From positions 1 through 33,529 of the forward strand of contig SNRW01000058.1 of assembly GCA_008636045.1 (NCBI GenBank): 33,529 bases of DNA, given 5' to 3'. The stretch comes from Streblomastix strix (lineage: Eukaryota). The translations under genes were made by a program, and so were the position numbers. Below are positions 1-33,000 of the stretch, in pieces; positions within the stretch are counted from its first letter, which is position 1, and every line of letters starts with the position of its first letter. Under the pieces are notes generated by a model. The model was not told the origin of the DNA, did not search any database, and worked only from the letters and a program-made list of their open reading frames with translations.

Positions 1-207
1 ATCTTTATTCTCATATGTGAGATCATTAATATTAGAATCCTTGTCCATATTCATTTCTCCTTCTATTCTTATTTCTTCACTTCTTTATTTGCACAGGTTA
101 TGGGTCAGAAGGAATAAATATAAAGAAGTGAAGAAATAAGAATAGAAGGAGAAATGAATATGGACAAGGATTCTAATATTAATGATCTCACATATGAGAA
201 TAAAGAT
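1..207. repeat. Perfect 88-bp inverted repeat (1-88 vs 120-207) with 31-nt spacer at the window start
   Basis: 1-88 (atctttattctcatatgtgagatc...cacttctttat) is the exact reverse complement of 120-207 (ataaagaagtgaag...catatgagaataaagat). Confidence 0.97.
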
Positions 208-3200
208 GAATTGGTTAATAAGGATAATTAATAAAGTTCATTATAATTATTACTATCAATGATTATATCATATCCGAATATACTACCATAATCTTCATTA
301 TTAATTCTTACATTATTTGATTTGCCTTATCTTCCTGTAAATCATTTTATTAATTTATATTAATAACAGTAAATATTAGGAAAAGATGATTAAAACAGGA
401 TAATACTTAATTATGAGCATATGAATGATGATAATAAATAAGAATATGGATGCATAATGATTAATAAAGAAAATTAGATTAATAAATAGATTGCAAACAT
501 TGATAACAAAGAATAAAAATATTAAGAAGAATATTAAGAAGAATATAAAAGATTATATTTTGAAGAAGATGTTTTAGTAAATCTTCTTCCTTCTCTTATT
601 TTTGGTGCTATTCGATGCCATATAAATCAAAATAATAAGAATAATACTAATAAATAATAAAGAACCAATCTTCAGTTGTAATATATTCTTGCAATTGGAT
701 ACTCACTTATATCTCCTGCTTTATCTTCTCATATTATTAATCTTGGTCCATCAATTTCATTATTTATTTTTTTGTTCTTATTATATTTATAAAAGGAATA
801 ATAAATAGAAGAATAAGTACAAGAAGAACATAAATTAACTGATAAATCATAAATTATTTAAGAATTATCGTTATAATAATCATAAATTAAATTTAAATAA
901 ATACAATAATAAAATGAATATAGTTAATTAAAGAAGAAAATAATGTTAAAAGTAATAATGTGGAAATTATTGAATTAAGTAAAAGGATATGGAGAGGATT
1001 TAATGTGCGAAATATTTAATTTAATTTCTGATTCAATGATGAAGATTAATACATTAATTAAATAAAATCAGGAGAAAGAATTAAAAAACAAAAAAGCAAA
1101 TAAAACGCATAAAATAATATTGAGAAAAGATAATAATGATAATGGAAAAGAAATAGTTTAGTATAATAATAAACAATCAGATTCATTTCTAGACATTTTC
1201 CAACTTAATCATAATAGCACTAATTATATTCTTTAATTCCTTCTTTCATAAAATTCATAATTATAACAATATTCATTATATTCTAATACTCTTCATTAAT
1301 TATAATAATTGAGTAAATAAGTAATGAATTTATATATATTTTGTATAAATATGGACATTAATACATATAAGCATAATATATTATGTGCATATATTCCTAT
1401 TTATATACATTTTGATAAATAAAATGAAATAATAATATAAGATAAATAAAGTAAAGATATTGAAAGAAAGAATGATAATATTGAAGATTATTAGTCTGGC
1501 ATGATTAAAGATATTTAAATAGAAGAATAAAATAAAGAAATAATAATTGAGAAAGAGAAAGAATAAGATCATAAGAAAGAGGAATTATAAGAGAAAATTA
1601 TGATAAAAGATATTGATAATATTGAAATTAAAGAAATTGAAAAGAAATTGAAATATAAACATTCTAAGAAACGTTAATATAAATAAGGTCTTAATATTGT
1701 GTTTGCATATATCAATATTAATTCATTCCAATCTCCAAATTAACTATTTGCTTTTATTGAAAATATTCCCTTAATTAATATTTAATAGAGTAATGAATAA
1801 TAAATAGAAGAAAGGAAAATGAAAGAAAAAGATATATAATATAAATTAGTATGTGATGAACATGGTAATAGAATGCATCACTATATGTAAGAATTGTAAA
1901 GATATAACAATGTCAATTATTAATTGTAACCTTCCTCATTATAAGCATAATAAACTTTATCATAATATAATGATATAATATTTAGAATATTTTAATTAAA
2001 CGTTTATAATTTTGTGAAAACTAAAACGAAGGATTTAAAATAGAAAATAATAAAATAAAAAAAAATGAAGAAAGAATAAGAAGAAAAAGAGATAAAATTA
2101 GAAAAGAAAAGTAAAAGAAAGAAAAAGTTGAGTGATTAAATAATCTAAAAAGAAATCAAATAAAAACCCATTAAAGAAGAAGAAGAATATAATAAGAAAG
2201 AATAAATAAAAACAGATGAATAATCTTCTGAACTGAATAAAGGTATATCTAATTCATTTTTTTCTCATTTAAAATATTCAAAACCATAAACTTTAATTTC
2301 TTCAAAACCTTTACAAAATAAATAACAACTGGATATGAAGACTGATTAAGACTAAAAATAAAAATCTTTATCAGAATAAAGCAAAGAAAAATAAGAATAA
2401 GAATAAGTTGATGAAAATATAAATATAATAAGACTAAATAAAAGGATTCTATGTTCATTTCTTAATCTTATATAGTAATAAAATCAATTAATTAAATGCT
2501 AAAAAGATGTTTAATAATAAATAAAATAAGATTCATAATAATAATAAACTTTTAATTATTCATATTAATACTCAATATAATAATAGTATATAATAAATAT
2601 TATAAGAACAATTCTATCATTAACTCATGAAAGATAAACTCACATTATAATAACATAATATTTAATTAACTAAATTTAATATTAATCTTAATCAATATAT
2701 AATACATTATAATAATCCATTAAGAATGCATAGATAAAAAGTCGGTTATATAAGAATAAAGCAAAATAAATTAAATAATAAGCATTAAAAGAATATATAG
2801 ATGAAAAACATAGAAGAAATAAAGAGAACTTAGAAGAAGAATAGATAATTTAGAAAGATGATGATAATCATATTCATTAAATTAAATATAACAATAATTA
2901 AGACATAATTAAAAAAAGAGAAATATTAATTGCAAAATCTATATTATATTAAAGAATAGCTGATGATATTTAATAAGGATTTGATATTGAAATAATAAAT
3001 ATAAACGATATTTATAATAAAATAAATACAATTTCTTCATATTTATTTATTTTATTGGATTCTGTTCCTTTTGAAGACCCAGAAAAATTTTTAAAGAAAA
3101 ATGTTTTATTATAATTTAAACAATAAATTTAATAATAATAATATTTTAGAAAAATTGAAGATAAAGAAAGATTAAAAGATGATAAACATTAATTAATAGG

Positions 3201-6200
3201 AATTGATATAATGTATGATGAATTTAATAAAATAGATAAAAATAAGAAAGAAGAATATAAAATAAAACTGCAATAAAAACTGCAATCATAATATTAAAGT
3301 GAGTATGAATGATTGAGATTACAATTTGAAAGAGATAGAATTTTGAGTGAATAGAGTATTAAGAATATTAATGCACCTTAGATTTCATCCCAAACTGCAT
3401 CTTAATAACAAACATCTTAACAGCAAAATTAATAACATCAATCTTTAAATATGACAAATTAAGAAATAATGAGTAAGGTACTTTCTATATTACGCCCTTC
3501 TCTTCTTAATATGATATTTAATGAATAATAAAATGAATAATAACAGCAATAATTTATTTATATTCTTTTTAACCAAATTAAATAATTATATCCATTATTT
3601 ATTTATTGGATATAAGCTCATAAGAACAGAATGAGTAGTTCATTGAAAGTTGAATGGATAATTGTGAATGAAGATGAAGCAGATGAATAAATAGAGATAT
3701 AAGAATAAGAATAATAATAGGATCAAATAAATACACAAATATCAAAAACATCATTACCACTTCCCCATTTTCTATCTTAATATAAATATGAAATGATTGA
3801 ATAGATAACAAATTAAATGTAACTATTTGTATCATTTTCATAATCTACTGTTGAATGGGCTGTTAATCAAATTAATTATTATACTAATAACAATGAAGAA
3901 GAAGATAATGAAGAAGATGAAGATAATGAACAAGTAAATGAATAAGACTCGGATGAAGAATTGGATTAAATTGAAGAATTAGATTCAGAAAAGAAGAAGA
4001 TTGAGAAGAAAAATGAAGTTGATAGTATTATTCATTATCCAAATTAATCTAAGTCATTTAATATAATTAACAATAAATAACAACGTAATACTTAATTGTA
4101 AGTATTGAATGCATATCCTGGACCGTATTAACAAGGTAGAATGGCTTTATTTTATTCAATTCCTCCAATTATTCATTTAAACCATTTGCCATAAATAAAT
4201 AAGAAAGAATAATAAGAATAATAATAAAATATATCCAAAGATAGTTCTGATAAAAAAGACATTAAGGATAAAATAGATGTCAAAGATATTAAAATAGAGA
4301 AAGAATTGAAAGGTACTTAAATTGGTAATGATGATTCAGTAAAGAATGAAAATGAATATGAAAATGATGAAAGAAAGCTAATTGAATAAACAATAAATAA
4401 TATTATAAAAGATAATAATGATGAAAAATAGATATAAATAAAGATATTATAGTCTGTTCCAATTATATAGTAAGCAATTTTATAATCAAGATAATAACTA
4501 ATTAGTAGATAATATCCTATATAAGTTAGAAATCATAAAAGAATAATGACCATTAAACCTTAATAATTTGCATTTAATAATAACAAAAAGAAGAATTAAT
4601 AAATGAACAAAATTTAATTAGCAATTTATATATCTGATATGTTTGCATCTTGGTTAATGTATGATAGGAAAGGTATAAGAAGAAAAAAGATAAATAATAA
4701 TGAAATAGATAATGTTTAATATGAATGGAATGATCCACTCTAAAATCATTCATCTTATAATCATCCAATAATATCAGCATCCTTTTCTTCTTATTATGAT
4801 TCTATTCTTCCTTTAATTTCCCATTAATTACTTTTGTCATTAATTTACTTACACAGACCCCCCTAACCTTTATTTTGGTCTAATTAATATAAAAATGGAA
4901 TTAATATCGATAATTAATAAAATAACAATAGTAAATAAGAAAATAATAATAATACATATATTGAAAATAATAATGAATTAGATGACTTAAATAAAATGAT
5001 AATTAAAGAAATAGATAAAACTTTAAAATAAGGTTATAAAGAGTAAACAATAATTAAATAATAAGAAATATTTGATGAATAAAAAATAAAGTAGGAATAA
5101 GAAACGAATAAATTATAAGAAACTAATTTATAATAATATCAAATTAAATACAAATAATAAGATTGGGATGATATTGATAATGAAAAAATATTAATTAAAA
5201 AAGTATCATAACCTTCATCATAATAATAAAAGTAACCATAACCATAATCTTAAACATCCCCCTTACAGCATCAATAAAATTATTATTCAAAAAGCCTTTA
5301 ATATTTTATGCAATAAGGAATGATCCAGAATTCACAATAACCTTCTTCCTTATCTTCATCATTCTCATTCCTCCCAATTCCATCTCCTTCAGACAATTAT
5401 AATTCATTTTCACCTTCACTTACTCCTTCTGTTGTATTACTATACATATTCATACTTAAAGGAGGACTATAGTTGATATCTCGCATAATTAGATGGTCTA
5501 TATTGAGTCTCATTTCATTAAGAAAGAATAATAACTATAATAATTCAGATAACAAAATGAATTTGGACGTCATAAATGGAGAGAATCAGATGAATGATCC
5601 AAATGCAAAATAATTAGAACACTAATCATACAAAGTATAAAACGAGAAGATATGCTGTATTATGAATAAATATAACCATTCTATTGTGAATAAATAAAAT
5701 GCTATAAATACTGAAATAGTCCCTTATGAATTAATATTAGTATAATCAAATAGAATAATGATTGGACGTGAAGAAATAGATGAAGATGAAGATGATTATT
5801 TGGAAGAAGAAGAATAAAGAATGTATAATAATATTAATAACTTACATCATATACTTTGTAATAATTATACAATATAATAAAGAGAAAAGAAAAGAATGAA
5901 TAGAGAAATCTAAAGAGAAAGAATAATAAAGATGATTATAAGTGAATAAAAGAAAAAGAATCAACGTGAATTGAATAAAGATGAAGACTAATAACAATAA
6001 AATGGTTAATAAAATGATTAAATATGCGAATATTGTTAATATTTGAAAATATAAGATAATTTTAATTATAATAATATTAATCTTCGTCTTTTATAATTAA
6101 ATTAAAAAGATTTTTATATTACACAATAATTATAACTATTGAAATAATAAGAAGATAAAAATAATTTTCATTCATCATTATATAATAATAAATTATTCTA

Positions 6201-9200
6201 ACAATTTTCTTACATTCCTCTTCTTACGTTATAATAACTATAAACAAGAGACATTACTATATAATAATTATTGTTAATTAGAAATATTGATTATATAATC
6301 AGTTTTATTATACCTCATATTCATCCACTTTCTATATTTAATGATTAATAATGCTAAATAATATTACCAATGTTATTGGAAGGTTAGTAGATCTATAATG
6401 GAAAATAAGGAATTAATGATAATTATTTGAATAATATTGAGGTGAACGAGGATCAAATGTAAAAAGTGATTGAAAAGAATAAAAAGTAGATGTTGATGAA
6501 GAAGGAAGAAGATGAAGAAGGAAAAAATAAAGATGAAAAATAATTAAAAGATTAAATCAAAGAAAAAGACAATGAAAAAGATTAAAAATATAAAAATAAA
6601 TAGACAAAATAGAAGAATAAAAAAATTAATAAGAAAAGAAAACTAGTTAATTTGGGTTTGTCATCTATAGTCATAATTGATAAGGATAAAGATAATGAAT
6701 CTTAATAATAGAAATAAAGAGGATACGATTTAGGGAATGAAATAATTAAAATATTAGTTAGTGAATAAGATTCAAATAAGGGGAATGAATTAGAATTGAA
6801 TTAGTAGTAATAATAAAATAAATGCATTTAAATAGAAAATAGATTGCAAGGATGTGAAATAAAAGCACATTTGAGGATGAAATGTGCTCTATTTATTATC
6901 AATTCAGTTTCATAATTATTTAATTACAATTTTAATAGTGAATATGATTAAATTGAATAAATGGGACTATAATTTGAAAATGATAATGAATTGATAAAGA
7001 AGAAGAAAAAGAAGAAGATTATAGTGAATGGAATTGTTAGATTTAAAGACAAACAATAATCATAATCTCCCTAATCTAATTCACATTCTCCAGTTCCACA
7101 TTCAATTGTTAATTATAACAGAGATACAAGCATTTGTAGCAATCAGACATATGTTCATAATTCTAATTATTATAATAATCCAATACTTTCTATTCTGTCA
7201 TTGCTGCCACCTGATAGAATCCTGCTAATATCAAAGAGCATAGAAGGATTATATGTATGGATGAGGATATAAAGAGAATTATACACATCTCTGTACTATA
7301 ACTGTGATTATTAGAGAGAGAAGGAAGAATAAGAGTAAATAATGGAGAATGAAGATATGGATGATAAGTAAGATTAGGATAAATTAAATAAATGGGATTA
7401 AGAATAAGAATAAAGTTATGTATAATAAGGATTGAAGGTATTAAATGCATTCATATTAAGATATAGTATGAATGCAAATAGTTACAAATATAAAGAAAGT
7501 GATATTAAAGATAAATAAATAAGAGAAAAAGAAGAGTAAACTAAAGAAACAGATAAAATTAATTGTTATTTTAACATTGAAGAGAAGAAGAATAAATCCA
7601 ATTAAACTAATTTAATGTAATTATTGTAATTTGATGATAGTCAATAATACATATATTAGTTTGTTAATTAATTTAAAGGAGCAAGAAAAATACAGTAAGA
7701 AAACTAAAAGGAAATAAATAAAACTATGGACAATAAAAAAGTAGAAGTACCTTAACATATTTAAAATATAATTATGAATATTTATAATAATGAAAATTAA
7801 ACTAATGAAAATAATGAATAAAAGATTATTTTATCAAATAATTTAATATAATAAATATAAAGATAATATTTTTCTAATTCGTTTATTAATTTTCCTCTTT
7901 ATTAAACAACTATCACTGAATAATAATAATCAAATCTGCTATTTTCAAGATGTATTCCATATTCATTTGCTTATAAAATTAGTAAAGATAATAATTAATG
8001 CGACAATAGATATATTTGGGATATCCCTTCAATTTATCATATTACTATTCCTTATTTATCTTAAAATAAATAATATCAATCTTCTTAGTAATATAGTAAG
8101 AAATAATTAAACATTAATTCCCCATCATTATCATCAGATTCATCCTCATCCTTATTATCCTTAGAATAGTAATTATAATTAGAATCTAAATCTCCAATAT
8201 ATTCTCCGTATAATTCACACTCCTAATCCCCATCCAGAGTATCATTACATTCATAATCATCATTATAACATCTCCATTCAAATATTCCTCACTCTGATCA
8301 TTATTAATCCAATACTCATCATCATCATTTTCATTCTCCAGGATCTCCTCATTCCACATCTCCAACTAATTCTAATTCATCCAGTTCTCCATCTTATTCT
8401 AATATATTCACTCCAATATCACCAATTGCTCCTTCTAATCGATATTCAAACATGTTCTCTACATTCCATAGTAATGATTCTCCTACTCATTCTATTTTTG
8501 GAAATTAACCTTATTCACATTTATAATAATTATTATCTATTCCTGGCAGTAGATTATAAACTGATTAATAATAGAGACATAGAATATAATTATAAAGAAT
8601 AAGAACTAGGTAATTAGAATAAGAAAATTTAGAATAATAACAAAGGTTATTAATATTACAGGATAGTATATTAAATGCATAGAACTAAAATGAAAGAATA
8701 AGAATATAAGAAGAAATAGACTAATTATAAATTTAAATACGATAAAATGATTTTTAACGTAATGTCAATGAAAGAAGTGAAAGATAATTACTATTAAGTG
8801 AAAGATTAAGTGAAACTGAAGGATAATAAATATAAGATAGTGTGCAAAGAGGAATACAAAGGTTATCAGATGAAATTAGAGTCTAATAATAAAATTAATA
8901 AGAATTAATAGAACAATTAAATAATCTAAGATAATAGTAATAATAATAAGAAGAACCAGAATAATAATTAAATTAAATTATATAAAGAACAGAAGAAAGA
9001 ATTAATGAATTAGAAAGAAGTATCAATTAATAATAAATTCTTTTAAGAGAATAATAATAAGAATTATTAGTATAATAATTATCAAGTTAAGTAAATTAAA
9101 GAGAAAGATAAATAGCTGAAGATGGTAGATAAAGATTAGCTTCATCACAAACATGAGAAGATATAGAAAGAAGAAGAATAGATCTAGAATAGGTTTAATA

Positions 9201-12200
9201 GTTAAGATAATAACTACAATAATAATAATAAATAAGAAGATAAATGGTATTAGAAAGAAGATAAGAAGTAGTATAAAGAAGAATTGGAAGAAGAATAAGT
9301 AGAATAGGAAATAGAGAAAGTGAATAAGAAGGTGAATAAGAAGATGGAATTTTAAGAGAAAGAGATAGAAGATTAATAATAGAAGAAGGGAGAATATAAT
9401 AAGAAGAAAGAAATATGCAAATTGAAGAAAGAAGACTATAGTAGTAAGAAATAAGAATGTAGGAGTAGGAAGTTGAAAGATAGGCAAGAATTTCATAAGG
9501 AAACACTAATTAAATTAATACAAGTTCAGTTTAGCAAGCTTTATAATAATATTAATTAGATTTAGATTTGAACTAATTAGAATAAGAAATAAATAGACCA
9601 TATTAAAGAATAACTTAATTAGGGCAAGGATAAAGATAAAGTGGTTCCCAATAAAGACTGATTTAATCAGAATAAAGAATTATATAATCAGAATAAAGAG
9701 TGAGAGACTCATAATAAAGAGCTAGATAGGCAGAATAAAGAATCGGATAAGCTGAGTAAATAGTGAGATAATAAGAATAAAGAACTAGATAATCGGAATA
9801 ACATGAAAGTATAGGAGAATAAAGACTGAGAGAATAGATACAAAATGATGGAAATAATGTCCATATTGAACATGAAGTAGAAGCTGTTGGGGGCATTGGA
9901 GGATTCTTATAGTATATATAACAGTCAGAATAATAATAATAATAAAATATTAATTAATAATAAAGATAATTAACAAGATAATAATAATAAGAATAATAAT
10001 AAATAGAAATATAATTGTAAAGTGATTAAATACGCAGATAATAAAGAAGAGATGAAATAACTGCTGTATTATTATCAATGAGTATCCAAAATGAAATTGC
10101 TTAGTAATCCGTTGATGTAACTGGTGGAAACTCTGAAGAAGAAGCAATTGAATATGCATCAATGCTAATGATTAACTAATAAGAAGGATAACAACAATAA
10201 TAAGAACAATAATAACAAGCATAAACTTAGTAATTAAATAGTGATATTATTCTTCCTAATATTCTCCTCCCACCAAATATAGCATCTTCTATTCAATCAT
10301 AACCAACTCTTTCATAATAACAATAATCTTCAACTATTCAACCAAATATATTAAATTTAGTTTAATAATCAATTGGTAATTTACATTTACCTTCATCAGT
10401 AGAAGCACCTCCTTCATCATCTATACAATAAGAATAAGAATAATAAAATGATAATCTTCTTCATCCTCCATCTTCATTACATTAATCAATATAATAAGAA
10501 TAAGAATAATAAAATGATAATCTTCTTCATCCTCCATCTTCATTACATTAATCTATATAATAAGAATAAGAATAGAATTAACATTCATCATTGTAACATT
10601 TAGAAGAAGAAATTAGAGAAGAAGAATTAGATGAAGATGCTATGTTATTAATGGCTTTATAAATGTCTGAATAATAAATTTAATAATAAGATTAATAACA
10701 ACAATAAAATGATTAAGTAATGGAAAATAAGATCGAAGACAATGTTAAGTAAAAATTACTAGAAAATCTAATTTTAGATAGTAATTTGAAAGATTAAGAA
10801 AAAGTGAAAGAAAAAGTATAAGAATAAGAAAAAGAAAAAGAAATTATTAAAGAAGAATAATTAGGATCTAAAGATGATATTGATGATGATGATGAGGAAG
10901 AAGAAGAAGAAGAGAAAGAAGAAGAAGAAGAAATTTCTTAGCAACCTGATTTATAGTAAATAAATGATGAGTAATAGAAAAGAAATAATATTCCTGATTA
11001 TATTATTCAAATTATATTGAAATTATACATAAATGAAGGATAGAGAAAGAAAGTGAAGATTAATAATGAAGGAGAACTGATATATAAAGAATAAATATAA
11101 TAAAATAAAGCTATATTTTGTCATGAATAAACCTCTGATGAAGTTAAAGATGAAGAATAAGAATAATAGACTTCAAATGAAATAGAATCAGAAGAAGAAA
11201 GTGAATATGAAGATAAATAAGGTGATATTAATCACTAATAATTTCCTTCTCCTCTTAATTAATCCACAGAATCTTAATTATCTTAATTATTGTAGATAGG
11301 ATTTTATATTCCTCATTTTCTTATATCTTACATATAGTCAAAATCATTGAATATTTCAAATGACATTGATAATGAAAGAAATTAATTAATAAAGAAAAGA
11401 TTTATATTGATGAATAGTAAATTTAATATAATAGAAAATGAATAAATTGATGTAGAAAAAGAAATTGTATAATATGATGAATAATATATTTACGGATAAA
11501 TTTATAATTCTGAATCATTGCTTCTCCATCTCTTAAATATAATAAGAGTAAATTAATATGAACAAAATATTTAAAATCAATCAATATATTCATAGCAATT
11601 ACAAATAATATGTGATATATATGAATAGAAGATTAAATATATCATAGAAAAGAGTAAGAATGAAAAGTAGAAAGTTAATTTGGAAAAAGATAAATAAGAA
11701 ATTAATGAATAATACAATAATAAATAAGATATAAAGAAAATGAATGATTTTATTTAATTAATAAAAGAATAAACTAAGAAATAATAAATATATATTAATA
11801 ATATTCCTGTTCCATATCATTTACTTTATTTATCTCCTTCATCATCATCTTCATCATAATATTCATATTATAGTTTGGATAATGATGAAGTGGAAATAGA
11901 ATAAAATTAAGATTAAAAATTTTATGAAGTTGACAAATACTTCAATTTGAATGAAGATAAATCTATGAATAAATGTATAATTGAATAATAAAAATATAAT
12001 TATAATATAAATAAAAATAAAAGTAAGAGTAGTGAATAAAAAGAAGAAGAAGATATTAATATATTATATTAGGATTCATCACGATTAGGAATTAAAAGAG
12101 ATTACTTAAATTCTAATGGAATTGATTCATTTTATTAGTAATAAATTAACTCATTAGATATATGCGGAGAAAGAAATATGAATAAATTATAAATAATGAT

Positions 12201-15200
12201 TAATGATGATGGTTAGTATTATAATAATACGAAGATTGGAAGAAGAGAAAGAATGTGGTTGAGAAGAGAAGTTGAAATTAATGAAGATAATAAAATAATG
12301 AAATATAAGGAAAATGATATTGAGATGCAATTGGGATATTTATAAGCTATTCCTCTTCTTCATATGTTTAGATTAAGCTATAATAATTATATTATGTTTG
12401 AAAGATTAATAATTAACTAAATTGTTTATATTATTTCTCAATATCATTCTTAATCATCATCATAATAATACTCTAATCCTCTTCCAACATCATTATTTTC
12501 ATCTTTGCATCTTTTGTATCTTCTTTGTATTGATAATAAATGCATTTATAATAATCTAAGATAATCAAAGACAAGTTCATTTAATATTAATATTAATGAT
12601 ATTATATTTGATTCACCATAATAAACTCATAATGATCCTACTCAAAATCAATATCATATAAACATAGTAGTTGCTATATTTATTTATTTAATAAGAATTG
12701 CATACAATAGAATACTATATGTACAAGAATAAGTTAGAAATAGAGAAAGAGAATATATAAACATATTAAATTAATATTTTTAAGAAAATGATGATGATAA
12801 TAGTAATGATAATGAAGAAGAAGATTATTTTGATGAAGAAATAGAAGAAAATTAGAATAAAATGATAATAGATGTTGATAATGGTGAACAAATCCATTCA
12901 TTTATATAAATAGAAAAATAATAACCTATAACATAGATTAATTATAATAATAAATAAAATGGTATTTAACATTATACACCTCTGTTGATTCAAAAGAGAT
13001 AATTCTATCCACATCCGTATCATATTAATAATGAATAATAAATTGGATAATAATTTAAATATTTTAAATTAGATAATAAATCAAATTAAGAAAAACAGAA
13101 TACAGAAACAGAATAATATAAATATTCGTAAGAAGATATTTAAGAATAAATTGAAGATTAGAGAATAATTGAAAGTGATATAATACGCCCTCTTATTTTA
13201 TATAATAATTAGAATTGTAAAATAAAAGAAGTTCAAGAGGGAAGAATATACAATAATTAAATAGAGAAAATTGAAAATAAAGAAAAATAATAATAGAAGA
13301 ATATGAACATGAATAATAAAAAGATTTTAAGAGCAAAATTAATATAATCAATTATTTAATATTAAACAGCAATTAGATAAGCAACCACAATATTATAATA
13401 AGAAACATCATTTATTTCTCCTTCTTCCTTGTTGCTTATAAATATTATTATAAAACAATATAAGACAAATAAATAATAAAAAGAAAGAAAGAATGAATAG
13501 AAATAGAAAGTTAATTAGAAAGAGAATAAATTAGAGAAAGAAGAGAAGGAAATGAATATAAAAGAAAAAAGTGAAGAATAAATCAAAAGTAAAAGTAATG
13601 AATAAAAGAAGAAGAAATAATTAAATGAATAGAAATTAGAAACAAAAGATTTATAATTAATTTTATTCAATTAAGATGCAAATATTATTGATTCAGATAA
13701 AGTATTCACTATATATACTTCGTCATCATCATCATAATCTCCTTCTCGTTCTCATTCCAATTCACATTCACATACTAATTCACACTCATAATAAACATTA
13801 TATAATATTCTAATAAATGAAATAATACAATTGTTATAAGTTATATCATACCCATCTTCTACATCTTAATAATCATAAATATCTTTATCATAATCTATTT
13901 AATAGAAATAAAATAATTTATTTGAAGGATTAAACTTGATGATGAAAATGACTCCAGCAATTAATAGATTATCTTTTTCATCATTAATACAATTGTTAGA
14001 AATATTATGTTTATACTCAAGATTTAGTCATAAACATAATGAAAAGATTAATAAGAAGAAAAATGAAGAAATATTTATAGAGCAATCTTCAAAAACAATG
14101 TAAAAAGATATTGTTATATAATAAAAACAAATATAATAAGACTAATCTTCATATTCATCAAATATATATTGTTATCAGATTATTCCTCATCTTCTTTCTC
14201 TTATTTCTTATACACCTCCTGAATGTTTACTTCCTTTAATTCATTTAATTGTTTAATCATCGTTTTCTGAATAATTCATATATAATTTAATCAAATAATA
14301 AATAATTCAAATAATAAACGAATACAAATATTGTAATACATTAACACTAAATCATTAATTTTAACATCTTCATCATCATTATTTATAAAGAAATAATGAA
14401 GAAGGAGAATAGCCGTAAAATAACTAAGAAAGATAATGCATTTATGATTTTAGCAAGTTGTAGGATATGAAGAAGGCATTAAATGAAAATAATAATAAGT
14501 TTATGTAATATTAAACATCCATTTAATCATCTTCATCATCATCAGAACTATAGTCGTAATTACCTTCTTCTTCTTCTTCTTATTTATCTCCATATGCTCC
14601 TTCTTCTGTAATATTACAACCTTGGAACTACCATTAATAATATTGCAGATAAAGATTAATATAGTAAGGAATAAGTATTAGATAATTAATTAATTAGATT
14701 TCACCATCATTATTGTATTATAATGATATTATTATAAAGATCATTATTGAAGTATTTGATATATATGATATTGGAAAAGAGAGAATAAAGATTGAAAATG
14801 AATAAATAGAGAAAGAAATGAGAAATATAATATAGGAAATTAATAGTGAAAGAGAAAAGAAGGAAAAAGTAAAAGAAAAAGAAAAATAAGATAAATAGAA
14901 ATAGAATGAAAATGAAAAGAAAGTGAAATAAATGGAGAAAGATTAAGATTAGGGAAAAGATACAAATATTGAAAAAGAGAAAGAAAAAGGAACAGAAAAA
15001 GAATAAGATGATATAATGAACAAAGATTGGAATGTGGTATAATCAATATATAATAAAATTAAAGATAAAAACAATAATTAAATTAAACAAGAAATAAATT
15101 AATATAATAAACATATTGAAGATGATAGATTTGATTAATACAACAATCCTTAGTTTTAAACAGAAGAATAAGTCTCATATAGAATAATGAGAGGTGAATA

Positions 15201-18200
15201 AATAAGAGTCGTTTTAAAATAACAATATTATTAAAATGAATAAATGTAAGAATAAGGGATCAAATATGAAAAATAAGATGTTGATGTTAATGTTGGTGTT
15301 AATAAAGAATATTTCTTTAATAAGAGGGGGAAAATAGGAATATATTTAATATTACATTCTATATTTAATATAATTATTAATTCATTCATAGTTAATTTGT
15401 ATGAATACAAAAGTGAATAAGAATAATAAGTCGAAGAATATTAAAGAAATGCGAATAATGAAGATTGGTTGGATGAATACGAGTTGAAGCAGGAGAAAAT
15501 TAAATAATCAATCAATAATATTTACAATAATAGCAATAATGATGCTAGTTATAGTGAAGAAGATTACGAATAGAATATTAATAATATGAATGATATTATC
15601 AATTAAATATGCTAATTTGGTCAGTAATATATATAATAATCATAATCATCTATATATTCGCATACTCCTTCTTCATTTCCTTCATCTTCTTAATATTCAT
15701 TCTCCAGTTATTCACTTTATTCAAATATTCTTTTACTTTAATCACTCATTCATTCATTCTAGTCTCATTCATATATAATTCTAACTCTTTTATCAACTTC
15801 AGATCATTAGTAATAATTTGATATGATTCATCTTCTTCTTAATCTTCTTTATATTCTTCCTTCTCTTTCACCTTCTTCTTCATCTCCTTCTTCATCTTTA
15901 TCAGATTTGATCCACTATTTATGTTTGCATAAGTAAGGAATTATAAGAAGAAGAATATTATTTAATATTATTTAAATGATTAAAGATGAAATTAATGAAA
16001 TTATTAATGAGGATAAAGTAGTTAATAATTATTAAGTAGAAAAATAAGAGGAGATAGATTTATAAATAATATAATTAGAATAAAAGATATAAATATCAAA
16101 TCATAGAATATAATTAACACAATTATTACTTCTTCTTCGTCGAATATTATGTGAATAAATAGAATAAAATAAATAAGTGAACGAATATAGATTATTGTCT
16201 TCTCCTTCTTCTCTTTCAACTCCTCTTCCTGTAATTTCAATAGAAATGATTTGCGAATTATATTCATCTGTTCCATAATTCATTTAAATTTTAGAATAAT
16301 GTTCAATATTGATAAATGATTTAAATAGCTAATAAGATAAAGATGAGCTAAGTAATGATACTGAATAAGATAATAATAAAAGAATTTATGGCAATGAAGG
16401 AATATAGTTATCTTTCATTTCAATAATAAGTGCTGTTAGAAATGAAGAAGTTAGAAAATGGATTAGAATAGAGGATGCAGATGATGATGAAGAAGAAGAA
16501 GATAAAGTAGTTGATGAAAATTCAAATAATACTCAAATAAAATAATTAATAAAAAAAGATTAATAAGGAAAATATAAAATAATATAATAATCTGGTAGCT
16601 ATATTTCATTAATAGGTTATTAAAGCAAATTATAAATGATAATAAAAGATAAGGAGAAAGATGAAGAGGTAAAGAAGGAAGTTGGAAATAATTGTGTTTA
16701 ATAATAAGATGAATAACTTTAAATTAATGATTAAGAGAAATAGTTGACTAATGAGTAATTAATATAATTGTAATTAAATGCTGCTTCAACTTTTGAAAGT
16801 TCACCAGTCAAAGTAACATTTACATAATAATCTCATATATAACAATCTTAATATTAAACATAATAATAAAATATAGATTAGGATAATTACTAATATTAAA
16901 ATGAACAATTATATTATCAAGAGTAAATATAATTATCTGGAAGACATTCATTTTCACTCCTTTCTCCTTTTATTCCATCTTGTCCAATAATCATAAAAAG
17001 AAGATAGAGAAAGAATAAAAACAATAAATAGACATTTAATTAACATTAAGATGAATATGAATATGAAGTTATAGTTGATAACATTTATAACATCAATACT
17101 TAAATTAAATAGAGAAGAAAAATACCTGAGAATTAAGAATCAGAAATATAAGAAAAAAATTAAGAGATTTCAAATAATCCTATATAGTAATATTATTATG
17201 ATTAAATGTCTTGTAAACCATAACTAAATATAAACGGAAATATTATATCGTAATATGATATAAATATAAACCATGAATTAAATGACAATGAATAATAAAA
17301 AATAATACAATAATAATAAGATTAAGAACAAAAAGTTTATTTTAGACACATTTTCCATTCTTTCCTTTAGCCAACATTTTCGTCTTTAAATAATATCAAA
17401 TATTAAATATTGCAAACATTGCCTTCTTCTTCATTTGCTTATTAAATATAATTATAAAATGAATAAATGATTAAATTAATCAAAGTTCCTACATTTACTT
17501 TATAACCATCTTAATATATTAGTATAGGAAATAATAATGAATAATTGAATGATTAAGATGATTATATTGGTAAAGAGTTTAACGAAGATGATAATGATAT
17601 AAAAGAATAAGAATATGAAAAGTAGATAAAACATGATTTATTTAGTCCTGTGAATTTCTATTTCAATGTATTTTTATATCTCCATTAGCCAATTATAAGT
17701 CCCCATTCGTTCTTATTAAATATCAATTAAAAGAAAAAAGAAAAGAAATAAATGAAGAAGGATGCAGAAACTGATAATTAAGTGGAAACCAAAGGAAATA
17801 AAATGGTTATTGATAAAGATGAATTAAAAGATACCAATTCACATATTTAAAATTAATCAATATCATAATCATTAACTTAATAATCTCAATAATTAATAAC
17901 AGTTGCAGAATTAACAGCAACTTTAGAAATAAGAAATGAATGTGAAAGAGAAATAGAACAAAATGATGAAAAAGAGAATAATTTGGAAAAGGATGACGAA
18001 GAATTAAAAGTAATTATTTTATAGTAGAATAAGTAAACGTAAAAATAATAATAGAAATAATAATAAAAACAATAGAATAATGAAAATATATATGTTGGTT
18101 AGAATGATTCTATTAATATATAGTTATGGATAAAAGATATTGTTTAGCCCCTTCTTCAACCTGTTTCATATCCAATTCCTTATTATTTGTCTTCTTTATC

Positions 18201-19651
18201 ATCACATTTAACACTCCCCCAACCTTATTCGAATATAAATTATATTGATAACAATTAGTTAAATAATAATTTAAATAATAAACCTTTAATTTGCATTAAA
18301 ACACAATGTGAATAATCATTTAATGTAGTTTCAGGCAAATTTATGAATAAAATTGGATAACATTCATTACTGAAAGGAGGAGGAAATGGAATATTAATTA
18401 TTAACAAAAACAAATAAAACAATCTGAAGAATAAATTAAAGAAAAGAATGAATTAAATATTATATAAATAATATTAATAAAAATAAGGAAAGGGAAATTT
18501 AGTTGGACTTGAGGAGGATATAATATGGAAAGATAGAAATATTAAATTACTATCTTCAATAATTCATAATATTAAATCTTATCCTTTATAATATAATAGT
18601 AATTTGTACCAAGAAAGTGATTAATTTAACAAAACAAGTAATAAAGAATATGAAAATTATTAATAGCAGTAAATAGAATTATTTAACTTATTGATGCAAG
18701 ACATTAAAATGCTAACAAGAAAAAGATTCGTTTATTCATCTTCTCCTTCTTCATAATAGCATTCACCATTACTACCTTCTCTTATATAAACAATTCCAAA
18801 TCATTTTATAGATAATTCATTTATCAACATTGAAAGTTCATCTTTATTATACGACTAAAAATATCCATCAATATATTCATCATTAATATCTCCATTAATA
18901 TATTCAATAGAAATACCTCCTTATTCATCATTATCTCAATCTTAAGAATCTTCATTATTATAATATTCATCATACTCATTCCATTCATTCTTAAATGTGT
19001 TGTATGTTTAACTTAGTAAATATAGATCTATTTATTATGAATAATTGAATTAGTATTTACCTTCATCGTCATCATCTTCTAATTCATCTGCAATTCACAT
19101 GTTAAGAATGTTTGAATAGAAAGGCGAATATGCAAATTAAGTTATTAATGAATAATGTGAATAAGAAGATAAAGATATAAATAAGAAAACAAATGAATAA
19201 TAAGTAAGTGAAATTGGGATAGGAAGTGAAATAAATAAAAAAATGAGAGAGAAGAATATTTTGGATATTACTAGAATGAAGTCATATATTCATTCATTCA
19301 AATAAATTAATGATTAATATCTTATCAATAACAATTAAAATGAAGAAATTAACAGTAATTAGTCATTATTATTGTCAGGAATAAAATATATAGATAGACA
19401 ATTAAATAATAATTCATTAAATATATTATTATCAGACAATTAATAATCAATATTTATTCCATCATTATATCATGAATAATAATTAAATCTGAAATATGAT
19501 ATGAAAAGAAGATAATAAAATGAATTTAATGAAAAGATAAAAGATGGATATAGAATGAAAAGAAGAAGATAAAGATATGCTTGTGAATAAATGGGTTTGA
19601 TTATTAATGAACAAATATTCGATGATATAAATATTGAAGAAAGTGGCAAAT

Positions 19652-19688
<37 letters not shown>

Positions 19689-22600
19689 CAACGATGATTA
19701 AAGAAAATAACATTAATAAAAGGTGCAATAACTTTATAATAACAAAGATGATATACATTAAAGATTATTATAACAAAGAAAGAATGAAAGAAATATTAGA
19801 ATAATTAATTATATATTTCCAACTTCTTCAAATTCATTTTGCATATCTAGTGAGGAACAAAAATTATAAAAACAATTTAATGAATAAAATAATTAAATAT
19901 CATAATATTCATACTCATTGACATCATAACAATAATAGTAATAATAAATAAATTAATAAAATGAAGATGTAGATGAGGAAGATTATTATTTATAAACTTG
20001 CTTATTTAATAGAAGAGCATTTTATTCATTTATTCCAAGTTCATTATCTTAATTATAACAATAATCATTGTATTAATAATAGTAAATGAGAAACAGTATT
20101 TAAATAATAAGAGGTGGAAATTGTTTGAATAAAGTATTTCCATAATAATATTTATAAAGAAGAATAAGTTCATCTGTTTTATTTTAATCAATGAACTAAT
20201 AATATCAAAATAAATAATCTTATTTCTGGATATTGATGAATGAATAGTGCGATTAATAATATTAAGGATGGTGGAGAATGAAATAATACGAAGAAGAAGA
20301 AATAATGAATGATAAAAGAATATAAATAATTAATTATAGCAAAAGAGTTAAAGATAATAAGAAACAGAAAATAAAAGAAACGATGATGGATAAAGATATT
20401 TAATTGGAAGAAGAATAGGAAAAGAATAAATAAGTGCAAAGACAATAAGAAAATGATAATAGCTTTAATTATAATAAACCTCAATTCCTATATAGATTGT
20501 CAGAAATAATTAATTTATAAGAACATTTATAATTTGCTTAATATTTATATTAATTAATTCCATAATAATTTAAAAATAAGTAAATTCTTCCTCTATTATT
20601 GTAATTGGATGAAGAACAAGAATTAAATGTTTAACAAGAAAAAAATAAATTGAAAGAAAAGAATATAAAAAAATTGAAAACAAAAAAGAATATAAGAATA
20701 AATGTAAACCCATAAACTTTATCATCTTAAATACAAAAAGATATTATCACATCGTAACCTTCATCTTCTTAATCATCATCATCATCTTCTTCTTCTTCAT
20801 AATAATAATATCCTTACTTTCTCAAATATAATAAAAATAAAAATATTAAATACTTACCCCGAGCTTTATAGATATCATATTAAGAATTATAATAACAATA
20901 TCAATCAAATTAATTACAAAGAAAATTACCAATAATTACATATTACGACCCATAAGCACTAATCAATCCATATTCCATTTCTTAGTCAAGTTCATTGTAG
21001 ACATTATAATTAAATAAATATAATATTATTGATTAACATTTTTATAAACCATAAATATAATAGCAATACATGAATCATTATAAAATAAGAGAAAGTGATG
21101 ACCTATTATTATTATGGCCATATTTGAATGAATTATCCTCTTTTGATTATAATTCATAAATATAACAATAAATATTAAATAAATACTAATAATATAATTG
21201 TATTGCTGATGAAACTGCATCTTAATCACTATCTATTCCATTTTAATATATTTTAAGTAATTCAATATAAATTACACCTTCATTTATTCTTCCTTTATGT
21301 TTAAATAGGTATTAACTATTATAATTGAAAAGTAGAGCTTATAAAGCAAACAATGTGAATGTTAATTTAAATGAATAAGAATAAAATGAATATGAATAGG
21401 ATGATGTAAATTATAAAAAAGAGATGGAAAAAGATGTTGTAAAAATAAAAAAGAAGAATAAAAGTCATATCAAACAACAAACTAATAAAGAAAAGAAATT
21501 ATATATTGAATTAGGAATAAGAATATATCAAGTATTAGAATAAATAATAATGAGAAGAAGATAAGAAGAATAAAAGAAGAAAGAAGAAATATAAATAGTT
21601 ATTTGGCTATAAATGTAAGAAGAATATAAATAAATGATTGAATAAAAAGAAAGAGAGAGAATTGAATAAGAAAGAATAGAGAATGAAAAGAGATAAAAAG
21701 AAAAAGAAGATAAAGAAAGAATAGAAAAAGATAAATAAGACAAACTTGCATCTCAATAATCAGGAAATGAATAATAATAATTAACTGAATTGGAAGATGA
21801 TGAAGAAGAAAGATTGTCTCCAACAGTATTGGCTGAACTTCCAGAAGAAATAAGAGAAGAAATATTAGCTAATTAATTGAGAGAAAGAGCTGAAAGAAGG
21901 AGAAGAAGAGAATAAGGACAGAATCAAGCGTAGAATGAATAATAATTAATACAGCAACAAAATGATCAATATGATTAGGAATTAGTACTTATGATAAATA
22001 TGATGGGAAATGAAGAAAGAAATGAAGTGTATCTGTAATTGGGATAATAACAACTAGAAAGGCTCCCAGTTGGTCTCAGAGAAGAAGCAGACAGAATCAG
22101 ACAGTCAGTCAACAACAGGCACCAAAGATAAGGGTAGTAATAATAAAGATTTGGTTAATAAGATGCGGAAGATGGTGATGAAGAGGAAGTGAACATTGGC
22201 TAATAAATAATGCAGATGGATGGAATGTTTGGTAGAATGGGGAGGTAGCAGTAATAAGATCAAATCATTTAATAATAATAAATTTATCAGTAAATAAAAT
22301 TATAATAATAATAATTAAATAATAGGAAAGATAATAATGGTGTAGATATACTAAATGGTGCTTTAATTGGGAGAAATAATACAATGCAAAGAAGATATGG
22401 GATGTTGTATATACTTGTAAATGAATAAGATACAAATAGTAGAAGGTTGGGATTAAGATAAGGAAAAAGATACCAATAAGGACAATAGGCGATATATGAA
22501 AATATTAATGGTTTAATATAAGATAATTAAAATTTAAATGAATAATAAGTTTAAGCAGGAAGATTGAGAGATGGAGAATAAAGAAGAGTAAGAATTAGAA

Positions 22601-25600
22601 GAAGATAAACACCTGCATTAGTAATGGAAGATGACAATTAAACATAACCATAATAGCTGTTATCATAATCATTATTATAAGTATTATAACAAAGAAGACA
22701 ATAATTGGAAAGCGAAATAGAAAGTGGAAATGATAATATGGAACAGTATAATATTGGAAGTGATAGTTAAGATGAAATAGATGAAGAAGATCATGATGAA
22801 CTAATGAATATATTGTAATAAGAAGGAGATTAATAATAAATTTAAAATTAAGATGATGATAGTAGTAATGATGATAGTTAAACAAGTATTGATATTGAAG
22901 ATATAATTGATGATGAATCCGAAATTGAAATATTAATGGCTTCTGACTATTCGTCATCATAATCATAATAAGATTAAGATTCAGAGTAAAGTTCAATATA
23001 ATCTGCCCATAGTTCACATTTATAGGATAATACAAGTTAAAGAATAATAAGAGGAAATGAAAGCTTATAACTTAACAACAACAATAATAATAATAACTTC
23101 ATCTCTCCAATTCAATATATTAATTTATTTAATAATGAGAATTTATTATCCACTGATCCAAATTTCAGAAGATAGGAATAAGAGTAGAGAAGATTAATTG
23201 AATAATAAAGAAGAATAATTGAACAATAAAGAAGATAAATATAATAAAATGCATTTGGATATTAGCCAACATTAACTCGCATCTAATTTAATAATGCATA
23301 ATAATAAAGTAGTAATAATATTTAGAGAGTTGGTGATAATTTAATGGAAAGAAGAGAAATAGCATAACAGTAGTATAACAATGATGGTGCATATGAATGT
23401 ATAGATCATCAGTCATATATTAATATAATAGGTAGATAAGAAAGAGGCGTGAATTAATTTTTAGAATAAAGGAATAATATTTAAAGTAACTTAACTTAGT
23501 AAGAAAGAAGATAGTAAATGAATGGAATGAGAAACAAAAATTAAATTAAAAATTCAAATCCTTATTTGTTATTGCAGAATAATGCACCATTGAGATTGGA
23601 TGATGTACTTAGAAATGACCTAAAAGAAGGAAGAATTAAAAAGAAAATATAATAATAAGGTTAATAAATATAATACACATCTCCTTCAACATAAGATGAA
23701 AAAAGAGTGTTATAACATGCAAACCAGATTGAATAGCATAGAAGGAGATATGAATATTATGCTTAGTCATTATCTCACACATTTATACACTCTTCATAAT
23801 AAGTCCAATAACAATAATATAAATATTACTTATAAAATAATATAAGTGAAATTAGATAAAATCAATTAACTAAGATATTAACAGTTTTATCTCCATAAGA
23901 ATCTTCATAATTATCAAATTAACATTAATTATTATTTTGCTTATAATATGATCCGTTTTCTTAATAATCTTTCTCTCATTCATAAATTCCATTATAAATA
24001 TAATCTCGTTCATAAAAAAAGTAGACTTCTTATACACCTCCAATTCAATCATCACATTCTAATTCATAATATATTGTTTTACTATCAAATATTCTTCTTA
24101 GCATTCAATAATCTAACATATTTGTCAAATAAGAATAATTAATAAATAAAATATGCAGAAATATTTAAATAGTTAAACAATTAAAAGATAAAAATAAAGA
24201 TTTAAATAATGAAATAGAAAAAGATGTAAAGAAAATTAATGATGAATTAATTAAGAAAATATAAAATAAAATAAAGAATATGACAATATAATATTTTAAT
24301 ATATAGCAGTTGCAAAATAGTAATATTTATTATATATATAAAGAGATTTACAATTCTATATATAATCTGATCTAAATTGATTCATCTTCAATATATTCTC
24401 TTTCTACTTTCTTAATTAATAATACTATTGGAATGTATTTAAGAATGAAAGAAGTAATTGTTAAAGAAAAAGAAAAAGAATTAATTTAGTCTTCATCTTC
24501 TTCTTCTTCATCATATGCTATAATATAACAATAATTTAGAAATCCATTATTATATATGAATGTATAGTAAACTTTATACTATATTAGATCTTTAAAATTA
24601 TTAATATAATTATGTTAATCAAATTTATTATTCGCTAGTATTGTTGCATTATAATTGGGAATAATAAGATAAGAAGAAGAATAAGGATAAATGAATGAGA
24701 ATGATGAATAGTAATAAATTTTGATTTAGAGTGTGAAAATTGATAAAGATGAAGTTATTGAATGTTCAGATGAAGAAATTGCTGACAAATACAATTCTCG
24801 ATTTTATGATGTTGTTTAAATGGTGAATGAATTGAAAGATAAAAATATTATAGAGAAATAATCATTATAATTATTGATTTAACTATTATTGGAATTATTC
24901 TTTACTTCATCAGTAATTCCTTTTAATTGTATACTTCCATCTGAATATTAATACTAAGATAATAAAGACATATAAATTAGAATGTTTAGATCGTACTTGC
25001 CATTTGCAAATACGCCTTTATTAGTTTATGCTACCAAAATACAATAGAATAGTAAAAATTAGGAATAGAAAGATTAAATTGTACTGAAGAATAAATAATA
25101 ACAATATTCAGTTCTTGATCATTTATAACGATAACTTCTTTCTCCTTCATTGTCATCACAATCATTATAATTCTTCTTCCCAACTTTATCTTAATCATAA
25201 TAAATAACATCTCCTTATCTCCTTATATAAATTAGATAAACTATTATTTCTATTATATCTTTAATACTACCCAAAAGTTTTAAATTTGAATTTAATATCA
25301 ATTAACAAGGAGATATAAATATACTATTATCAAGTTAATAAGAATAAATATAAAATCATGAACATATAATAAATACTAATCCTTTAACATTATTAAATAA
25401 CAAAAGTTAATCATTAAAAGCTTAAATATTAAGTTCTATTATTAATAACAAATATTTATTATTTGAATGTATTAAACTATTTATAGCAATCGTATAATAA
25501 TTATCAAAATAATGCATTTAATAATCAAAATAATTATAGCTACATTTCAAATGGGCTCCTGTAGTTCTTTCTGCCTATATATGTGGATAAAGAAAATAAT

Positions 25601-28600
25601 AGAATCCAAATTTCATTCTTCCGAATATATTTTAAAACAAATAAAAAAGTGAAGATCACAAAACAGATTAAAATTAAGAGAAATTAATTGAAAAAGAGTT
25701 GAAAAAGGAAGAGACAAATATTGAATAATCAAAATAAGAAGAAAATTAAAATTTAATTTTGCCTTCTTCTTCTTCTTCTACTTCTACTACATCTCCTTTC
25801 TTATTATAACAATAATAATTATTTATATAATAATTATCATAGTGGATATAAGCATATAAAAGAAGATAAGATTCACTAAAGCAATAATAATTAGTAAATA
25901 AACCATTACCCTTTTCAATGCTTCCATTCCCACTTCTATCGCCATCAACACCCATACAATAAAAGTTAGTATAGTAATATCAGGTGTCTATATAACATGG
26001 AAGATTAAATGAATCATAAACAGAATAATAAAGAATTTAAAGAGATTAATATTATATAACAAATGAAGAAATGTAAGCATAAAGAAAAGTAGATAAAGAT
26101 TAATTTGGACCGTTATTTATTCCTAATTATTTAATAAATAACATAAAAGAAAGCATATAAAATGATAATAAGCGTAATTTAAATAGTACTCATAGTGATA
26201 TAAATAAGTAATAGACAAGTAAATAACAATAAAAAGAAAAAGAACAGAAAACAAAATAAATATAAATATTGTAATAAAATATGCCATATGTAACACCAAT
26301 ATAATATATTCTATCATCTCCCTTTGTATAATAAATAAAAGAATAAAAGAAAATATGGAAACAAATATACAAAGAAGAAAGAATTAGATTGAATGAGAAA
26401 GAAAAGAGAAGAATGAATAGAAATAAATAAAATAAGAAAGTGAAAGAGAAAGAGAAAGATGTTGAAACAGAAGATTCATTAAATGTGTTTAAACACCCAA
26501 AAGCGATCAGAAGATAAAGAGAGAAATAAAAATAAAAAGAAGATGATGAATTAGAAGAATAATTTGACATTAGTTCAGATACTTCTGAATCAATGAATGA
26601 ATAAATAGATGGTGATATTGAAAGATAAGAAAATGACGATGAATCAGAAGATGAATATAGTGAATCTACTTTATAATTTTCAAGTTCAAGTGATGATGAT
26701 GATGATGATAACAATGATGATGAATTTGATTATAATACTGAACCCATAAATACATTTGAAAACAATAAAATAAAAAAATTAGAAATAGAAAAAGGGATAA
26801 ATAATTAATCTGATGAATTTTAAGCTTTTACGTCTTTCATGCACCTTATATAATAATAACATTCTACTTCGCAATAATAATAATAATAATAAGGACAACA
26901 ATAATAAGATGATAATCTCCTTCATCCTCCCACTTCATCATTGTAATAATAAATATAATAAAATGACTCATTATTAAATAATACATAGAGAGTTTAATAA
27001 ATTTAAAGATAAATAAGAATAGCAAATGAAAGAATAAATGATTTATAAATATAACAATAACTTTAACTCAATAATTACATATCATAAGATTAATAAGAAA
27101 ATGAATATTAGAGAATGTAATTAATATAATAATAAATAATTGATGAATAAAACAATTTAAGAATATTAATGGAAGAACAAAGATTGATTACAAACAGAAT
27201 AATTTAATAATAAAGAGCAACTTTAAATATATCAAATATTATAAGAGAAGAAAGATAAGATTAGAAAATGAAATTGAAAGATGGAATTAAATAATAAATA
27301 AATGTTAGATCATAATAAAAACAGAAATTACAAATTAACAGATAAATATTACCAAAAAAAATTAAATATATATTCCCATGGATAAATAAATATTAAGATG
27401 ATAGTTCATTTATTAATTAAGATAATGATTTGTTTGTTAATTCATTACCATAATAATAATAATCCAATAGTTCTACATCGCTCCATTCGCTCACTCATTC
27501 ATTTGTTTCATCTTCAAAGTCATATACATAATCAATTAATCAATCTTCTTCAATTCCTTCTATTCTTCCATCTGACATTCATTAAAAGTTATAAAATTAA
27601 TAAATAAACTCAAAATAATATGTCATATCATAATTAATATAAGATTAACCTCTCTCATATCTGCAATTAGATATTAATGAAATATATTGGAGCTAAATTT
27701 CATATTAATAAGATTAAAATTATGAAGTATAAGGAAGTATTATTATTGATGAATAAATTAATAATATTCAAGAATAATAGGAATAATAAATATAGTAAGA
27801 AAATATATTAAATGAACAAAAATAAGAAATTTAAATTAAAGAAAGAGTGAAAGAAAAAGAAAATAACTAAAAAGAACTTGAAAAAGAAAATAAAATAAGA
27901 AATACTTAATCTCCTTCATCATCAGCATCTCCATCATCCTCCCATTCACCTTCACAAATGCAGCATTAATAATAATAGAATAAGAATAAGAATGAAAAAG
28001 CACTATTACATTATATCGCTCGTACTCCTGCATTCAGACCAATATAGACAGACCTAGAAAGAGATTAGTATTCTTCTATTCAATCTTCTATATACTCAAT
28101 TGATAACATAAATTCTAAATTACTGTTGTTACAATAATTCAATATGATATAAAATATTAACAATATATATGAATCATAATAAGATAAAGATAATCTAATC
28201 AATTTTAACATTCTTAATTATTTATATGGAACAAATATTGGATAATTTAAAGAATTAGAAGATTTACTATTTATTAATGATAGTAATAGAAATAACAAAA
28301 TGAATAATTAAACTAAACAATTGAGAAATAAATTTTCAACGTAATAAAGTAGAGAATAATTGTTTAATTAATTATTATCATAAAGAAATAATAATATAAA
28401 AGAAATATTGAATCCAAGTTCAAATCACTTATAATTATTCAGAGGAACAGGATATGGAGAAATATAAAACTGGATAAATATTGGAGGAATGAACATAGGG
28501 TTGTATACAAAGTAATTCTTTTCTTCATCTCCATCTTCTTAATATTCATCTGATCATATTAAACATGTCCATTAGCATACATCATAACAACATAAACAAC

Positions 28601-32868: not shown

Positions 32869-33000
32869 AACAATAATAAAGGCTCAAAGTCGAACTTTTT
32901 TTATTTTAATCAATTTTTATTAGAAGTCAATAAATATTAAATGAAATGATAATATTTTATTTGTAATATTATATATGAATTGTTTAGTAAATGCATCCTA
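32869..33000. terminator. 132-bp spacer containing the 3' UTR/polyadenylation region of two convergent genes
   Basis: Bounded by the two facing TGA stops. It is T/A-run rich and loses the coding periodicity. AATAAA hexamers occur at 32875 and 32929, which is weak evidence in such AT-rich DNA. Confidence 0.55.

Follow-up and report, generated by a model that had tools for sequence, protein, structure and literature searches.

The window, i.e. the whole 33,529-nucleotide stretch of Streblomastix strix DNA analysed here, harbors a giant reading frame with an in-frame TGA codon at 3310. This codon is real and likely common to two samples, and the gene is apparently translated on both sides of it. 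Reading of the internal UGA as an amino acid is the single most likely explanation, held tentatively and at somewhat less than even chances. The weights given below to read-through, a spliced intron, a dead allele, a split gene, and an artefact are a matter of judgement, not of computation, and refer to one gene with two such codons.

Extent and identity of the giant reading frame

The reading frame extends on the forward strand over 89..32868, encodes a HUWE1/Tom1/UPL1-like E3 ligase, and is open to the window edge, its true start lying outside the window. Read with table 6, frame +1 spans 10,955 codons and is interrupted solely by TGA at 3310 and 9154. Together with the terminal codon at 32866, TGA occurs three times in this frame over 1-32868, compared to 200 and 600 times in the other two forward frames. 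Since approximately 165 TGA codons would be expected from the position-specific composition, the frame is considered real and the two internal ones rare exceptions. Frameshifts are absent across all 10,955 codons. In-frame counts amount to 1239 TAA, 176 TAG, and 35 TGG, the latter agreeing with the manual count of an earlier note made from the sequence alone. The GC content of the window is 21%.

The first internal TGA (3310..3312, + strand, codon 1104) is preceded in frame +1 by QSQYQSEYE and followed by LRLQFERDRILSEQSIK. A frame scan confirmed its coordinates and flanking peptide as well as the next in-frame ATG at 3451, all as described earlier. The second internal TGA (9154..9156, + strand, codon 3052) is found in a Q/E/R-rich stretch and has no enclosing GTATG donor. 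Both codons are located within the first 28% of the frame. The leaky context for UGA is UGA-C, and the bases 3' of the two codons, TTG and GAA, respectively, differ from it.

The terminal TGA (32866..32868, + strand) closes the HECT domain at the same place where the relatives end, which upholds its earlier interpretation as a real terminator. It is followed by a spacer of only 132 nt (32869-33000), in which another in-frame TGA occurs at 32947. Beyond the spacer, an S/Q-rich open frame on the minus strand ends in convergent orientation (33001-33528, 175 codons, TGA at 33001-33003). The second terminator that had been proposed, at 33003, does close this 175-codon frame; that it marks a real gene end is likely rather than established, and the frame has no Pfam match. 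The long frame (89-32868, approximately 10,900 codons) contains no frame-breaking intron, though the group is reported to have one to two introns per gene. An in-frame tandem duplication (10419-10550, unit of 66 nt, 97% identical) has a third copy at 26880-26945 (76%). An inverted repeat without mismatches (88 nt per arm, loop of 31 nt) opens the window at 1-207 and likely stems from fold-back during amplification. Its bases 1-88 probably do not belong to the genome, and the gene is without its start.

The HECT domain (PF00632, 31960..32862, + strand) is recognized under table 6 with a Pfam E value of 1.5e-96, with TAA and TAG read as Gln. Its three Trp codons, at 32233, 32602, and 32608, are all TGG. 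A ubiquitin-binding motif (UBM, PF14377) is found at 21814..21891 on the same strand (E 1.7e-6; 2e-7 in a second profile test). Named best matches are mostly HUWE1, Tom1, and UPL1 proteins with 40-51% identity over the HECT region, and no oxymonad-named or near-identical protein is among the matches listed (for both statements, the best 120 of 348, 492, and 378). The order of a UBM followed by a C-terminal HECT domain is the same as in these ligases. In contrast, the long listed relatives comprise 4,346-7,270 aa versus about 11,000 codons here (approximately 2.4 times a typical HUWE1). The DUF908, DUF913, and UBA domains of the family gave no significant match in the present frame with Pfam, an own HMM, or profiles built from relatives.

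Upstream of the UBM, nothing exceeded the reversed controls when BLASTP and sliding profiles were applied with 55 of the 120 long HUWE1 relatives; only the UBM region and the HECT domain were found. A phmmer search with aa 1-1039 against 1.84 billion representatives yielded no match. Due to this lack of alignable relatives upstream of the UBM, neither internal TGA can be assigned to a conserved alignment column. A UBA-like segment noticed by eye (10048..10185, + strand) is weak; it ranked third among the PSSM loci, below the reversed control, and was negative with Pfam and the own HMM. A weak UIM-like segment (10618..10680, + strand) obtained the top PSSM rank, barely over the reversed control, and has no Pfam match. 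These two segments (aa 3350 and 3540) are situated at 0.31 of the frame, with scores not above controls; the UBA of relatives is located at 0.27-0.43 of the protein (80 of 120). The UBM resides at 0.66 of the whole frame, compared to 0.60-0.78 in the relatives (60 of 120 scored). Simple arithmetic places it at 0.53 for a protein starting after the second TGA and at 0.62 for one starting after the first TGA (3469). Judged from these sequence positions, the UBM favours translation across the second TGA and is silent on the first.

None of eight unspliced pieces of the frame, either ATG-to-TGA or open, was present in the protein collection. Among JGI metagenome contigs, 130 pattern matches to HECT-region relatives were obtained, none of them confirmed, and no exact match to the 20-mer beside the second TGA was detected.

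The internal TGA in other samples and its coding surroundings

Runs X1 and X3 are labelled termite gut metagenome, and X1 is a possible source of the window. For a termite-gut eukaryote of 21% GC that reads TAR as Gln, a Streblomastix-type oxymonad is the simplest assignment (PMC1501061, PMC13002328). X2 is another sample of the X1 study and is 2.2% diverged from the window over five pieces. It may be RNA, in view of its 10 Mb of contigs with the longest at 7.2 kb, or amplified DNA, in view of one record that joins two nearby pieces in inverted order. Run X4 gave short junk pieces only. Differences between X1-X3 and the window were taken from a table of the best-supported 40 of 86 rows, with depths down to 3.36.

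X1 contigs match the window without difference at 3123-3922 (depth 8), including the first TGA, and at 9119-9663. An X2 contig (record 8, 3191-3923, depth 11.9) runs unbroken across the first TGA. Of its five differences, the three listed ones are at 3453, 3554, and 3881, all outside 3310-3312. As rows down to a depth of 3.36 are shown and the site lies 119 nt inside the contig, a difference at this codon should have appeared; X2 thus likely carries the TGA, too, as concluded from an absent row. X2 and X3 have two differences in common, at 3554 and 5684, which identifies these as real polymorphisms. X3 contributes one record over the first TGA (depth 2.6), with 5.3% divergence and eight differences that fall outside the listed rows. 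Among the listed pieces, the second TGA is covered only by X1, whose contigs break just upstream of it (overlap 9119-9148). One X2 contig joins 5324-5942 with 7033-7530 in opposite orientation, likely an amplification chimera.

That the TGA arose by amplification or assembly error is very improbable. The fold-back at the start of the window is typical of whole-genome amplification, the presence of the codon in X2 is derived from an absent row, and the second TGA is without independent cover. Nevertheless, the X1 contig matches exactly at a depth of 8, and X2, which has polymorphisms of its own (two of them common to X3), shows no listed difference at the codon. This largely removes the earlier caveat of amplification damage.

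The coding character of the surroundings was assessed with a frame-specific model trained on 9400-32865 and compared with held-out stretches. The segment 3313-3450, directly downstream of the first TGA, scores +7.9 (97th percentile of the held-out stretches), and the sole real spacer of 132 nt scores -10.6. After the second TGA, the score is lower (17th percentile) and within the coding range. All 37 listed differences between X2 and the window (of 52 places) fall between the two TGA codons; 14 are synonymous compared to 9.1 expected (P 0.04), corresponding to a dN/dS of about 0.54, and both listed indels comprise 3 nt. The first in-frame ATG after TGA 3310 (3451..3453, + strand) is ATA in X2. 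Judged from these sequence comparisons, the segment between the two TGA codons is probably translated and under weak constraint.

Read-through of the internal UGA and competing explanations

According to the read-through explanation, the window would contain one giant HUWE1-like ligase frame with TAA and TAG as Gln, and the TGA at 32866 would end the protein. The TGA at 3310, owing to its distance from the mRNA end, would be decoded as sense. A single mRNA would then span both internal TGA codons, and UGA would terminate only close to a poly(A) end, the rule known from Parduczia and Condylostoma. At the internal UGA, a near-cognate tRNA would insert an amino acid, Trp by precedent. The first TGA would most likely go back to a TAA (Gln) codon under weak constraint, where insertion of Trp by read-through would be tolerated. 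One cause, read-through, would thereby cover both internal codons.

The rate of internal TGA is 2 of 10,955 codons, or 0.018% (95% CI 0.002-0.066%). Where sense use of internal UGA is proven, rates of 0.042% in Condylostoma magnum and 0.120% in Parduczia have been published (PMC4967479). The Condylostoma rate predicts 4.6 internal TGA codons for the present frame (P(<=2) = 0.16), the Parduczia rate (0.12%) predicts 13, and two are seen; being compatible with Condylostoma, the rarity does not exclude read-through. Free synonymy of TGA with TGG as Trp codons is excluded (2 of 37 versus an A-ending share of 0.85, P 9e-27). The residue context of the second TGA fits Gln better than Trp (0.144 versus 0.038), and that of the first shows no preference. 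Codons one step from TGA number 2810 of 10,955, with TAA accounting for 44-74% of this target and TGG for 1-2%. The likeliest mutational source is therefore TAA (Gln), not TGG or CGA as suggested earlier. Selenocysteine, another earlier option, finds no support from a SECIS match: the window gave no Rfam match, and the 3' spacer folds at z -0.31, though a divergent protist SECIS could escape such a search. Sec machinery has been reported in M. exilis, P. pyriformis, and T. marina (PMC6759080, PMC10703272). The window contains no tRNA genes. Overall, the sense-UGA proposal of the earlier note is partly supported: the coding signal, the X2 sample, the weak purifying selection, and the Condylostoma-like rate speak in its favour, and sense use as such stays short of an even chance.

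Alternatively, the UGA at 3310 might be a plain stop within a small in-frame spliceosomal intron that ends at TAG 3338 and is spliced out, an explanation judged nearly as likely as read-through and, like it, below even chances. A micro-intron had been dismissed too quickly before: the GTGAGT at 3299 has the GAG at 3334 as its sole in-phase AG up to 3364, but two GTATG donors at 3213 and 3303, both in frame with TAG 3338, had been missed. They define candidate introns of 126 nt (3213..3338, + strand) and 36 nt (3303..3338, + strand) that enclose the TGA; only 3.2% of the codons are enclosed by such a latent in-frame GTATG...TAG intron (6% for one of two TGA). Published Streblomastix introns start with GTATG, end with YAG, are 46-229 nt long, and have a T-rich 3' end (PMC1501061); donor and acceptor are present in both candidates, and the length range accommodates the 126-nt candidate, not the 36-nt one. 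TAG 3338 is the first YAG at least 30 nt from both donors, and two of the nine GTATG words in the frame fall at most 100 nt upstream of the TGA. Such an intron would probably be young and derived from coding sequence, and unspliced mRNA would be cleared by nonsense-mediated decay. Intronization of this kind is described in Paramecium and would explain the coding look of the candidates (PMC9612004), UPF1 is present in Streblomastix, and the one X3 record over the site (5.3%) is more diverged than five of the seven other listed X3 records. Several findings oppose this. With the TGA omitted, the two candidates have coding-like scores (60th and 80th percentile), and instead of the T-rich 3' region and non-coding composition of published introns they have a purine-rich 3' end (pyrimidine 0.30) with three AG within 25 nt before the acceptor. 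X2 is without a listed difference in 3221-3338, where 1.3-4.0 would be expected under neutrality, and without a splice joint; if X2 is RNA, its contig represents an unspliced transcript. No listed piece of any run has a joint over the first TGA, and no run is on record as RNA. For the second TGA, another intron would be required, one lacking a consensus donor, and the 33 kb are free of frame-breaking introns. Splicing to the first YAG at least 30 nt away would break the frame at five of the nine GTATG sites; hence, the GTATG word alone is insufficient. Depletion of donor words in the frame (GTATG z -1.3, GTAAA z -2.7) is uninformative.

Two further explanations, both improbable and of similar weight, retain UGA as a true stop. 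Both TGA codons may be nonsense changes, most likely from TAA, and the allele or gene copy carrying them may be dead or truncated and persist in a polyploid or drifting population. The large mutational target given above, dominated by TAA, and the weak purifying selection between the TGA codons (dN/dS about 0.54) are consistent with this. With death confined to the sequence upstream of 9154, 0.8-1.6 new TGA codons would be expected between the two, a number compatible with the data. A whole gene that died before the split of window and X2 should, in contrast, have acquired 4-8 further TGA codons after 3312; one is seen (P 0.10-0.003, or 0.24 at the low local divergence of X2 record 8), the 33 kb contain no frameshift, and the HECT domain has remained intact. 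As the other explanation, the TGA at 3310 may be a true stop, either at the end of the first of two or three tandem genes or within a gene that split recently; translation would then start anew at ATG 3469 and ATG 9244. Tight gene packing, as evident from the 132-nt spacer at the 3' end, would agree with this, an AT-rich spacer often contains no stop under table 6 (0.13-0.19 per junction with the frame included), and no homology links the upstream pieces to HUWE1. Such an arrangement is opposed by the coding score of the supposed spacer 3313-3450, by the loss of ATG 3451 in X2, by its demand for two in-frame junctions, and by the start at 9244, which puts the UBM outside the range of the relatives.

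Relation to known codes and implications

A combination of UAR = Gln with dual use of UGA is known from Parduczia, Condylostoma, and Amoebophrya (PMC5304391, PMC4967479, PMC6394959). In Parduczia sp. and the karyorelict code, UAR is exclusively Gln, and TGA occurs terminally as well as internally, far from the 3' end, as in the present frame (PMC4967479, PMC5304391). Internal TGA is at least about twice, perhaps six times rarer here (0.018% versus 0.12%), and Parduczia is a ciliate, whereas the organism of the window is likely a metamonad. The low internal UGA rate of C. magnum (0.042%) is compatible with 2 in 10,955, but there UAA and UAG also terminate, whereas the two ends examined in the window use only TGA (PMC4967479). 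Amoebophrya sp. ex Karlodinium veneficum is an AT-rich non-ciliate with UAR = Gln and UGA as both stop and Trp; its internal UGA codons are 5'-biased, and UGG is favoured in its giant dynein genes, resembling the situation here (PMC6394959). While 781 of its transcripts score better with UGA = Trp, the present frame offers no conserved column for comparison.

Streblomastix strix itself, a termite-gut organism of low GC content, is described with TAA and TAG as Gln, in agreement with the window; the available text of both descriptions makes no mention of sense UGA (PMC1501061, PMC13002328). A published screen for in-frame stops covered ESTs from 17 Streblomastix genes; its main text mentions neither TGA nor UGA (PMC1501061). 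Similarly, the titles and abstracts of the literature searched contain no report of sense UGA in oxymonads. None is given in the available text of PMC5304391, PMC11687900, PMC10089648, and PMC13002328 either, three of which name TAR = Gln as the oxymonad change. Intron statistics for M. exilis are given in PMC8767320. Paramecium intronization acts on coding sequence of 3n length with a premature stop, producing GTA...TAG introns in the 5' gene part that look coding, like the candidates described above (PMC9612004). The intron discussed here is predicted from sequence, and the second TGA is without a consensus donor.

Extended to the organism, the read-through explanation would describe an oxymonad without a dedicated stop codon, with UAA and UAG as Gln and UGA as sense inside genes (approximately 0.02% of codons) and as stop near the poly(A) end. 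This wider proposal is somewhat more doubtful than read-through at 3310. As part of it, and with the same reservation, such low-rate sense use might be hidden by gene models that split genes or invent micro-introns.

All three stops are used as sense codons in the nuclear codes of some ciliates, Blastocrithidia, and one Amoebophrya (PMC5304391, PMC6394959, PMC11687900). If the intron explanation holds, the window presents a candidate intron caught at birth. If read-through is true, automatically predicted genes of the organism are incorrect at every internal UGA, and a new lineage is added to the codes without dedicated stop. A mitochondrial tRNA-Trp(UCA) has been discussed as a possible decoder in Condylostoma (PMC4967479); in amitochondriate species, it would not be available. 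A metamonad case would mean one more independent origin, within a group to which such species belong, and would be the first code of this kind in Metamonada, at an early stage of UGA capture.
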